Shown here one piece after another: positions 31,417 to 58,763 of a stretch of 64,000 bases of DNA. Both the position numbers and the translations under genes were made by a program. How positions within the stretch are numbered: the first letter of the stretch is position 1; every line of letters begins with the position of its first letter. Origin of the DNA: a virus; IMG/VR virus record IMGVR_UViG_3300047160_015156, positions 34,217 to 98,216 of that record. The stretch is one strand, 5' to 3'. The notes beneath the pieces are model-generated. The model ran no database searches. It was not told the origin of the DNA and was given only the letters and a program-made list of their open reading frames with translations.

Positions 31417-31499
31417 TTCGATGACCGAAACGGCGGCATCTTTGGTTTGTTTTTGAAGCTTCTTCACAACTTCAAAACGAAAGAAAGCTGGGTTCAAAC

Positions 31500-32351
31500 A
31501 TGGGTTTTGGAAAAAAGTCTGCGGAGTCATTCGATTCCAACAAGGTTTACGATCTCGCCGCGAAGGCAATGCGCGAGCGCCGCTCCTCCGTGGTGCGTCT
31601 CGCATTCCGTCTTCACCTTGGCTCGTGTTTGATGAATCACTTCTCGAACAAGGCTATCTGTCAGATGCTCGAGAAGATGGTGGGTATTTCGAAGCCGAAG
31701 GAGCAGAAGGACCTCACGAAGTCCTACCTCGACTCTCACTATCGCAATATCAACGATGACCTCGTTGTTCCTTGTCGCATCATCAAGGCAGCGATCGTCG
31801 AGGGTGCGATCTCGACGGGGAAGGCGGTGTCGAAGGCGGAGTTGAAACGCGATCTTCGCGTCATCGGCTTCACCGCCCCCATCACGCTCCCGAAGGGCGT
31901 CAAGAGCACGACGATGGACGTGCGCTTGGTCCGCAACATGACCGGAGTTCCCGACGTGCGCGCCCGCGCCCTCATTCCCGAGGGCTCCACCGTGGACTTC
32001 GTCGTTCAGTTCCCGACGACACTGTCACCGGACAAGGTCATTGCCGCGCTAGAGGGTGCGGGTCAGTCCATCGGGATCTTCGACTTCCGCCCGGAGAAGG
32101 GCGGTGATCAGGGTACGTTTGAGGTCGAACTCCTCTCCGAGGACAAGATCGACGCTATCGTCCAGTCGTGCATGGCCCCGGAGAAGCCGTATCTGCTTCC
32201 GACCGAGCTCCTCCAGGCCTATAACTCCAACCTCACTGAGAACCAGGAGAAGATGGTGAAGGATCTCAGTGACGCGGAGAAGAAGGCGAAGAGCCTTGTC
32301 GAGCACGTCAACGGTCAGGGGAAGACGAAGCGCTCTCAAGTGGAGGTGTAG
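31500..32351 (+). CDS. solitary Cas7/RAMP-like protein, candidate RNA-guided effector
   Basis: N-terminal strand RLAFRLHLGSCLMNHF, VPCRIIKAAIVEGA helix, VR...PDVRARA thumb, C-terminal Gly-rich loop AGQSIGIFDFRPEKGGDQGTFEV; no cas1/2/3/5/6 in the window. Confidence 0.75.
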   Translation: MGFGKKSAESFDSNKVYDLAAKAMRERRSSVVRLAFRLHLGSCLMNHFSNKAICQMLEKMVGISKPKEQKDLTKSYLDSHYRNINDDLVVPCRIIKAAIVEGAISTGKAVSKAELKRDLRVIGFTAPITLPKGVKSTTMDVRLVRNMTGVPDVRARALIPEGSTVDFVVQFPTTLSPDKVIAALEGAGQSIGIFDFRPEKGGDQGTFEVELLSEDKIDAIVQSCMAPEKPYLLPTELLQAYNSNLTENQEKMVKDLSDAEKKAKSLVEHVNGQGKTKRSQVEV

Positions 32352-32358
32352 GAACTTT

Positions 32359-32405
32359 GGGAGACGCGCGAGGGTCCTAACCCACCCCTCGCGCAAGGTT
32401 CTCCC
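32359..32405 (+). other. leader stem-loop of the pentamer array
   Basis: GGGAGA/TCTCCC outer and GCGCGAGGG/CCCTCGCGC inner inverted repeats. Confidence 0.7.
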
Positions 32406-32413
32406 TCAGTCGA

Positions 32414-32900
32414 GGCATGGCTGGTGAGACATGGAGTGGTTTGCTCAGGCATCGTTCACATCGGTTGGGTACGGCGCGAGTGGTAAGGCAGGCAGCGTAA
32501 GCAAGGGTCCGGTCGTGAAGTGGTCCGGTAAGGTTGGGTAGGTCGTTCAAGGCAGGTGGGGCGCGGTGAGAACTGGCGGGGTCCGGCGGGTCGAGTTCCG
32601 ATCCGGTATGGCAGGCTAGGTTAGGTTTGTCGTGAAGGGGTCCGGTACGGTTGGGTAAGGCAGGCTAGGTATGGCGCGCGACGTCATCGTTGGGTGCGTT
32701 AGGTGCGCCTCGGTAGGTCAAGGCAGGCGCGGTTTGGAATAGGTCCGGTAGTCGAAGGGCACGGTACGTGAAGTCCACGACCGGTGTGGCGAGGCAGGCT
32801 CGGAGGGGCGAATTATTCCCCGGTTCGGCTGCGTAGGGCAAGGACAGGCAACGCAGGCAAGGAACGTTAGGGCAGGGCAAGGCTAGCCCGGCCGGTACGA
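32414..32900 (+). ncRNA. non-coding GGY-NN pentamer array, ~8 units delimited by GGCAGG; putative guide-RNA array
   Basis: GGCAGG at 32487, 32551, 32610, 32659, 32722, 32793 (variant 32852); e.g. GGCA GGCTA GGTTA GGTTT GTCGT GAAGG GGTCC GGTAC GGTTG GGTAA; no + strand ORF in the track. Confidence 0.75.
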
Positions 32901-32915
32901 CAGGAAAGGTGTAAG

Positions 32916-33503
32916 ATGTCAAAGAAAAACGAGAAAACGGAGATCAAGTACGAGGTAAAAGGCTACCTCGCCGAGGATGCGAAAGTCATCGGTGAAGAGC
33001 TTTGCAAGATGGCCAAAGGAGGTGACATCCAAGCCCTGGACAAGCGCGAGGTTTTCGAGACCATACGCGATAATCCTCGTCACCCTCTTCGTCGTTTTTT
33101 CAACTGGGATGAGAGTGAAGCTGCGTACCAGCATTGGATCTCGCAGACGGCGAATCTCATTCGAAGCGTTCGCGTCTTCTACGTTCCCGTGCGTTCCTTC
33201 GAGAAGCAGCTGCCTCCAACCGTGACCAAGCTTGGTCCTGAATACCGACGCGCGAAGCTCGAGAACGGGAACCAGGGCTACGTCAACGTCCAGAATGCGG
33301 CGGCGGCAAAGAACCCGCGTGTTTTCGACTCCATGATCGCACTCCAGGTCAACAGCGTCCGTAACGCCGTCCGTACTCTCACGCAGACGGCCGAGCACAA
33401 GCCGGGGGAGGGGCCTCTTTCGACTCTCATCCGGGAGCTCCAAGTTGCGATCTCGAAGTACGAGGACGCGACCACCACCATCGACGCAGCCGCCGAGGAA
33501 TGA
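32916..33503 (+). CDS. accessory protein of the RAMP/array locus
   Basis: DAKVIGEEL...HPLRRFFNWDESEAAYQHWISQTANLIRSV; RBS AGGAAAGGT at the array end. Confidence 0.7.
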   Translation: MSKKNEKTEIKYEVKGYLAEDAKVIGEELCKMAKGGDIQALDKREVFETIRDNPRHPLRRFFNWDESEAAYQHWISQTANLIRSVRVFYVPVRSFEKQLPPTVTKLGPEYRRAKLENGNQGYVNVQNAAAAKNPRVFDSMIALQVNSVRNAVRTLTQTAEHKPGEGPLSTLIRELQVAISKYEDATTTIDAAAEE

Positions 33504-33819: not shown

Positions 33820-34386
33820 TTGAAGCCGAAGAAGAAGCCGAAGCCGCAGTACCAGCCGGCAAAAGTCGTACCAGTCCTCGAAGCCGCGATCGCGTATTGG
33901 ACGGGACAGCTCGTCCCCCAGGACAAGCGCGAAGACTTCAGGAACGAGCTCTCGAAGCTCCTCTACCGCGAAGCCGAGAAGGACCCCGCCCTCGTCTTCT
34001 ACGACCACGACGGCCAAGCGGGGCAACCCCTACGCCTCAACGTCGACTACGACCCGCAAGGCATCCTCCTGACCGCGATCAGGAACGTGGGCATCGAGTG
34101 CCAGGGCGTGTTCTTCTCCGCCCAAGGTCTCTTCCCCTATAAGACCAGAACCTACATCCGTGCAGGAAGGTTTTGGGTGAGCGAGGGTTACGGGTCGAAG
34201 CACTTCCAAGTCCACCCCAAGCTCCCATCCCAAACCTCCACCATTCCGGGCCCACGGTCTCTTTGCGACGCCTGCTATGAGCAGGAGCAGATCCAAGCCG
34301 ATAACTGCAGACGGCAGACACGAGGCGAGTGTACATGCCCCCCGGTCATCTGCGAACACGAGCACGCGGCATCTTCGAGGACATGA
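33820..34386 (+). CDS. hypothetical protein
   Basis: LNVDYDPQGILLTA...FPYKT. Confidence 0.6.
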   Translation: MKPKKKPKPQYQPAKVVPVLEAAIAYWTGQLVPQDKREDFRNELSKLLYREAEKDPALVFYDHDGQAGQPLRLNVDYDPQGILLTAIRNVGIECQGVFFSAQGLFPYKTRTYIRAGRFWVSEGYGSKHFQVHPKLPSQTSTIPGPRSLCDACYEQEQIQADNCRRQTRGECTCPPVICEHEHAASSRT

Positions 34387-58247: not shown

Positions 58248-58763
58248 ATGAAGATGATGACGATGTGGGCGATGCTGTTGCTCGGAACCGCGGCGTGTAC
58301 GCATCAAGTCTCGGGGGAGGGGGAGAGACCACCGGCGGAACCAACGGTTGCCGGTGAAACCGAACCCTCTCCCCCCGCGGCAAACCCCTCACCGAGCTCG
58401 CCGGCGCCTCACCAGGAGGCTCCGACGACCGCCCCCACCCCAACCCCCCAAGCGCTCACCCCACCCCCGCAGCCGGCTCCTACGAGCTCGGCGCCCGCCC
58501 CCGTTCCGGATGACTCCCTCAAGGAGAACGGTTTCGCGGCTCAGAACGCATGGTGTGCGTGCAAGATCACGGCTCAGGACTACTTCGAGGAGAACAAGGC
58601 GGGGTATTATCAAACCGACTTGAAGGCGTGCATCGGGACCGTCGCGACCTCGAAGGAGTGTGCCGCTGACAAGTCCCACGATTGCATTCTCGCCCTTGAT
58701 GCCCCGAGCACCTACTGCACGATCAAGGCGCTCCCACCGAGCTGCGTCTATTGCGTCAACTGA
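58248..58763 (+). CDS. lipoprotein with Pro-rich linker and Cys-rich domain
   Basis: LLGTAAC lipobox; P/T/S linker; 8 further Cys. Confidence 0.7.
   Translation: MKMMTMWAMLLLGTAACTHQVSGEGERPPAEPTVAGETEPSPPAANPSPSSPAPHQEAPTTAPTPTPQALTPPPQPAPTSSAPAPVPDDSLKENGFAAQNAWCACKITAQDYFEENKAGYYQTDLKACIGTVATSKECAADKSHDCILALDAPSTYCTIKALPPSCVYCVN

Follow-up and report, generated by a model that had tools for sequence, protein, structure and literature searches.

A near-duplicate segment in two guide units of a staggered VIPR array from a soil phage, probably copied between units

VIPR systems were described in 2026 in three bioRxiv preprints (10.64898/2026.04.26.720920, 10.64898/2026.04.26.720927 and 10.64898/2026.10.15.759431). 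The Cas7-like protein Vipr forms a polymer along a vrRNA that consists of GGY-NN pentamers, one pentamer per protomer. The NN pairs read out double-stranded DNA, skipping one base after each pair; binding leads to gene silencing in competing elements (phages, satellites), and the published arrays frequently carry many guides against one element (same three preprints). In the published structures each Vipr protomer holds G, G and Y base-specifically, and in the Vipr of Escherichia phage SUSP1 an aromatic residue and an Arg of the G-loop hold G2 and the pyrimidine (10.64898/2026.04.26.720927). SUSP1 carries a type II system (Vipr, vap1 and vrRNA1-4), in which the vrRNAs are encoded by separate genes of ~100 nt with a conserved pseudoknot tail (10.64898/2026.04.26.720927). 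In another arrangement, named the 'staggered' array in the legend of fig. S18 of 10.64898/2026.04.26.720920, adjacent vrRNAs share 1 nt.

We analysed a stretch of 64,000 nt (the window), positions 34,217 to 98,216 of the IMG/VR record IMGVR_UViG_3300047160_015156, which is a complete 98-kb phage genome from soil. The genome contains a VIPR system composed of vipr, a GGY-NN array and a vap neighbour (Table 1). An earlier reading of the letters alone (the sequence-only reading) had taken this stretch for a guide array written in a GGY-NN pentamer code, and this was borne out; the profile and the fold of Vipr identify the system as VIPR. By profile, model and fold, Vipr is a minimal RAMP protein (RRM core, G-loop and thumb) related to the described Viprs; at least four tandem YNNGG (GGY-NN) pentamers lie in the adjacent non-coding tract, on the vipr strand; and the locus is minimal, with a vap accessory gene, on a virus genome. 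It is a further member of the VIPR class already described, with a staggered array. Like the staggered VIPR of the fig. S18 legend, it is phage-encoded and combines a single Cas7-like gene, vipr, with an accessory gene next to it and a GGY-NN array, with the same 1-nt overlap of units at GGCA-GGC and a register that steps by one at each boundary. It differs in that the array here contains many degenerate pentamers and irregular unit lengths in U4-U6. The comparison with SUSP1 shows a Vipr core alignable over 143 residues and an identical pentamer scaffold. Vipr, however, has 283 aa here and 202 aa in SUSP1, and the separate vrRNA genes of SUSP1 are replaced by a continuous staggered array.

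Table 1. Features of the VIPR locus, in positions of the window
Feature	Position	Strand	Remark
GCGGCATC motif	31433..31440	+	67 nt upstream of vipr; candidate phage promoter for vipr-array-vap
vipr	31500..32351	+	283-aa Cas7-like RAMP protein, expected to coat the guide RNA
Stable hairpin between vipr and array	32359..32405	+	predicted by folding of 32352-32420
vrRNA array	32414..32900	+	~490 nt, GGY-NN pentamers, ~7 units separated by GGCAGG
Third GGTTGGGTA copy	32463..32471	+	in U0
U1	32491..32555	+	65 nt, 13 pentamers including 1-nt overlap; contains copy 1
Copy 1	32512..32540	+	in U1
U2	32555..32614	+	60 nt
U3	32614..32663	+	50 nt, 10 pentamers, single register; contains copy 2
Copy 2	32629..32657	+	in U3
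vap-like accessory gene	32916..33503	+	195 aa; conserved beside vipr in relatives

The assignment of Vipr rests on several comparisons. Its open reading frame has no Pfam match. A profile built from 25 Vipr homologues, however, matches the solved SUSP1 Vipr (PDB 36pp_D; E 1.4e-4) in an alignment that takes in the G-loop signature D-aromatic-R-P, with D-F-R-P-E-K-G-G (D-F-R-P-x3-G-G) opposite the SUSP1 G-loop. R197, G201, G202 and G205 are invariant across the family. The AlphaFold model (pLDDT 86) finds its best PDB matches by Foldseek in the Csm3/Cas7 subunits of type III CRISPR complexes (E 3e-7). The closest relatives by identity are P0002 (74%), P0003 (69%) and P0004-6 (~60%). In a phage collection the locus has no DNA match, and at the protein level only matches of ~29% identity were found, to Gordonia phages and one Pseudomonas phage. 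Hypothetical proteins of Gordonia phages Pipp, UmaThurman, Ecliptus and ODay and of Pseudomonas phage LESphi2 align with the Vipr core at ~29-30% identity, with E values from 1e-9 to 6e-6, and these phages may carry VIPR systems that have gone unannotated.

The vap-like protein has no Pfam match and no detectable sequence match to any solved protein in the PDB; its Atlas neighbours are viral hypothetical proteins. Its structural resemblance to winged-helix Rep/TrfA proteins is weak (TM 0.33-0.37) and may serve as a lead only. The gene is a conserved neighbour of vipr: tblastn placed it there at 25-49% identity in the related loci L002-L005, L008 and L010, and a count of seven such loci includes L009, which is the same contig as L002. 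The order vipr-array-vap is found in the window, L001 and L003, and vipr-vap-array in L002, L004, L005 and L010; in L001 a small ribbon-helix-helix-like ORF lies between vipr and the array. In L008 (3930-4300) the vap frame, judged by eye, ends after ~90 codons, past an IEWKIGK stretch common with L002, and is followed by a short pentamer array, a junction that looks like a deletion fusing the gene to the array.

The GCGGCATC motif upstream of vipr shows a strong strand bias in the window, with 29 exact copies on the plus strand, spanning 3580-56869, and 1 on the minus strand. We infer from this distribution that the motif is a candidate promoter, consistent with the phage-specific promoter suggested earlier for this genome. 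Since the copy in Table 1 lies shortly before vipr and the next one downstream only at 34366, vipr, the array and vap may be carried on one transcript. Between vipr and the array, the segment 32352-32420 folds into a stable predicted hairpin (MFE -29.2 kcal/mol, z = -2.7, 1 of 200 shuffles folding equally well), which is not followed by a T-run.

The region between the two genes (32352-32915) is non-coding and 41% G. Within the array, the autocorrelation of G reaches 0.35 at lag 5, with weaker peaks at 10, 15 and 20, and GG pairs recur at 5-nt spacing 30 times. GGCAGG is found at 32487, 32551, 32610, 32659, 32722, 32793 and 32871, and the GGY phase makes a -1 step at every unit boundary. Across the family, 36 of 67 boundary spacings are 4 mod 5 (p = 1e-9). 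Because of this spacing, the -1 phase steps and the agreement with the fig. S18 legend, we assign the array to the staggered type, with units of 5n nt that would overlap by one G at GGCA-GGC; the unit lengths in Table 1 count this shared G. Units U4-U6 are less regular. U4 (32663-32726) is predicted to form a stable hairpin (z = -2.1, 6 of 200 shuffles folding equally well) and U6 contains GGGG-CGAATTATT-CCCC (32803-32821); as the lengths of U4-U6 are irregular too, the 3' part of the array may be decaying or may have another role. As a whole the array folds no better than shuffled sequences (z = +1.0), as would be expected of a protein-coated single strand. The 98-kb genome has no other array of this kind; a candidate second array on the minus strand, at ~58421-58480, proved to be only a G-run-rich stretch.

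The same boundary, GG(C/T)A(A/T)-GGCA-GGC (GGCAGGC), is present in the six related delimited arrays (L001-L005 and L010), and is the only motif that these six have in common. The available relatives are distant enough (flanking genes at most ~75% identical, mostly 66-72%) that their arrays align neither with the one described here nor with each other. A more remote VIPR locus in IMG/VR, L013 (1090-2090, minus strand), encodes a short Vipr of roughly 200 aa, judged by eye, ending in GDFRPTYGRF... The L013 array starts with GTCGTGAAG, contains TGAGACATGG, as does U0 of the window (32425), and has a hairpin and then a T-run at its end. The motifs common to L013 and the array of the window may be due to chance, or part of the block discussed below may be a signal.

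The locus is not a CRISPR-Cas system: no long direct-repeat array was found, and Cas1 and Cas2 profiles, to which control genomes respond, have no match in the phage genome. The earlier proposal that the guides of this array did not come from acquisition by Cas1-Cas2 agrees with the gene content of the phage, which has neither gene. A search of Rfam gave 0 family matches and 0 hammerheads.

We then turn to the near-duplicate that is the main subject of this analysis. The sequence-only reading had pointed out that a 29-nt segment is repeated, nearly unchanged, in two units. The two copies (Table 1) are indeed identical at 27 of 29 positions, and GGTTGGGTA recurs a third time in U0. The mismatches, T at 32521 against G at 32638 and A at 32531 against C at 32648, both fall at NN positions, as had also been claimed; in the local GG register each is the fifth letter of its pentamer (GAAGT/GAAGG and GGTAA/GGTAC). 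This pair is the best ungapped 29-nt self-match of the array. When the array was shuffled as GG-delimited tokens, which preserves the scaffold, the best self-match was 20.6 on average and 24 at most, and 0 of 300 shuffles reached 27; among Markov nulls, 0 of 300 first-order and 1 of 300 fourth-order sequences did so. Unrelated windows of this array, compared in phase, agree at an average of only 40% of positions. When units were aligned locally with gaps, the pair U1 and U3 gave z = 5.1 (0 of 300 shuffles), to which no other pair of units is comparable; the local score of U0 against U3 is marginal (z = 2.5, P = 0.02 among 21 tests). An alternating two-unit module (U0/U2/U4 and U1/U3/U5) was also considered. 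The alignments were suggestive, but only U1-U3 was significant against shuffles, and the module was rejected.

The similarity of the copies breaks off abruptly at both ends, and the flanks within U1 and U3 are unrelated. The 5' flanks measure 21 and 15 nt and the 3' flanks 10 and 1 nt, in U1 and U3 respectively, giving differences of 6 and 9 and a sum of 15. U3 can be read in one register throughout (GGCTA GGTTA GGTTT GTCGT GAAGG GGTCC GGTAC GGTTG GGTAA GGCAG). In U1, however, the GGYs of the block (32522-32541) are in phase 2 within a phase-1 unit, that is, one base out of register, and the slips, at 32511/32512 and 32540/32541, are the edges of the shared block. Because the register slips of U1 coincide with the block ends, a pasted or converted segment is suggested. 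Both copies, in addition, contain the non-GGY pentamers GTCGT and GAAG-. As the GTC and GAA letters of these degenerate pentamers are fixed neither by the scaffold nor by target matching, their identity argues for common descent.

Taken together, the two 29-mers are probably copies by descent, a short patch having been duplicated or converted between units and having then undergone two changes. In the mechanism that we propose, a patch of about six pentamers would have been duplicated or converted between U1 and U3, probably by slippage or template switching on dense GGY microhomology, for example at GGTCCGGT (32506, 32522, 32639 and 32742), and two point changes would have followed. We only infer the mechanism and the direction of copying, the maturation of both units into guides, and an effect of the two changes on targeting. 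Set against descent is the observation that this is the only such pair in the array, and that related arrays have at most weak internal duplicates. Near-duplicate guides are thus not general in the related arrays examined, nor was a family-wide excess of guides with common NN strings found there, in a test that the boundary motif confounds.

The main rival to descent by copying assigns a function in the RNA to the block, or to its left half GTCGTGAAG, which would act as a nucleation, start or processing signal for some vrRNAs and would have been kept by selection. This would account for the fact that GTCGT and GAAG- depart from the GGY rule identically in both units, and CGTGAAG does occur a third time, at 32767. 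The motif is, however, present in only 2 of the ~7 units here and in 0 of 6 arrays of the closest available relatives, and the identity of the copies continues through four ordinary pentamers, NN letters included. The start of the distant L013 array, where GTCGTGAAG is followed by GGT pentamers, also fits a signal, but one such GTCGTGAAG-GGT match in IMG/VR is near chance (~0.4 expected, in a rough estimate made by hand), as viral GGT runs are many. Nor does the block have any predicted structure. The U3 RNA is predicted to be unstructured (open centroid, z = +1.6), as is U1, and the block is, therefore, not likely to be a folded element. We regard a selectively kept motif as unlikely. It is less credible still that U1 and U3 are independent in origin and converged through selection to match one conserved target site that two variant competitors share. 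Published VIPR arrays do often direct many guides at one element, and the copies have 9 of 11 NN letters in common, but matching to a target limits the NN letters only and leaves the identical positions 1-3 of two degenerate pentamers unexplained, and the target searches described below found none. Finally, a chance resemblance, arising from the common GGY scaffold, which constrains 3 of every 5 letters in canonical pentamers, and from the G-rich composition, is effectively refuted by the token shuffles, the low identity of unrelated in-phase pairs and the gapped alignment of U1 with U3.

Whether the copies would also encode similar guides depends on how Vipr keeps its register. Read in the local GG register, copy 1 gives GTnGTnCCnAAnTG and copy 2 gives GTnGGnCCnACnTG. 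Under strict counting from the unit end, the read-out of the U1 block would change from GT-GT-CC-AA-TG to CG-AG-TC-TA-TT-TA; the copies would then not encode similar guides, the block in U1 being one base out, and the two units would be unrelated guides. Since the protomers hold G, G and Y base-specifically, we favour reading in the local register, in which the filament would have to pass across a 6-nt or 4-nt step. In the U3 version the core read-out GTnGGnCCnAC (32629-32648) equals its own reverse complement, and the U1 version, GTnGTnCCnAA, does not. A palindromic target for U3, for example an operator, is possible, though a four-pair palindrome is expected by chance about once in 256.

The sequence-only reading went on to propose that units evolve by slippage or recombination combined with point change at coding positions, possibly tracking target variants. 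The duplication itself is well supported as descent. The part concerning coding positions is not supported, as it depends on two substitutions (p ~0.14): the chance that both differences fall within the 11 NN positions is 0.135, which is not significant with n=2. For position 5 alone the corresponding chance is 0.025, in a test picked post hoc, and in unrelated in-phase pairs 47% of mismatches are at positions 4-5 anyway. Moreover, the pattern would look no different if only GGY were under purifying selection, without adaptive retuning. Two differences are too few to show how VIPR guides diversify; neither change at coding positions as a mode of diversification nor a tracking of target variants is supported. 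The accompanying expectation that indels come in multiples of 5 holds for the whole units (65 against 50 nt) and fails for the flanks of the patch (differences of 6 and 9).

Searches for targets and for sequence variation bear on the same question. Searched exactly, with the 1-nt skip, the 18 letters of the U3 pattern have 0 matches in IMG/VR. Guide matches in the phage's own genome are equal to the shuffled-guide null, and those in related loci are no better than shuffled guides, one doubtful match of U2 aside. In that match, 20 of 24 read letters of U2 agree with positions 680-714 of L002, where a contig of a related phage encodes the N-terminal part of an SNF2-family helicase. The match is probably due to chance, because the base that is skipped is the first of each codon instead of the wobble base. 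Four runs from other soil samples (X2, X3, X4 and X5) were compared with the window. X2 covers the array in one contig (32172-32781) and X4 covers most of it in three pieces, both with 0 differences; X5 covers only the 3' end of the array, again with 0 differences, and X3 gave one exact piece outside the array (33293-33459). The array is identical across the covering pieces, which leaves no polymorphism to analyse.

The proposed copying of a patch between units has a counterpart in CRISPR arrays with duplicated or hybrid spacers, where the repertoire can likewise be reshuffled by recombination within the array without acquisition machinery. Unlike those arrays, the one described here is without direct repeats and unique spacers and without Cas1 or Cas2, and its guide letters alternate with scaffold at a period of 5 nt, so that recombination at any point would place its junction inside a guide. 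A gapped VIPR guide, unlike a CRISPR spacer, cannot simply be excised from its target. As a tentative and rather doubtful extension of these results, VIPR repertoires might grow and change without acquisition enzymes, through copying of patches on GGY microhomology with junctions in any register, selection restoring the 5n length, and retuning of read positions to a variant target; U1 and U3 would then be an intermediate caught in this process. The origin of guides in VIPR is not addressed in the main texts of 10.64898/2026.04.26.720920, 10.64898/2026.04.26.720927 and 10.64898/2026.10.15.759431. If a patch could be clearly shown to have been duplicated and then altered at its read positions, this would give a first indication of the route by which guides originate; the U1/U3 pair, a single case with two differences, only suggests such a route. 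The block that is in register in U3 and one base out in U1 also poses a testable puzzle, namely, whether Vipr recognizes GG locally or counts from the unit end.
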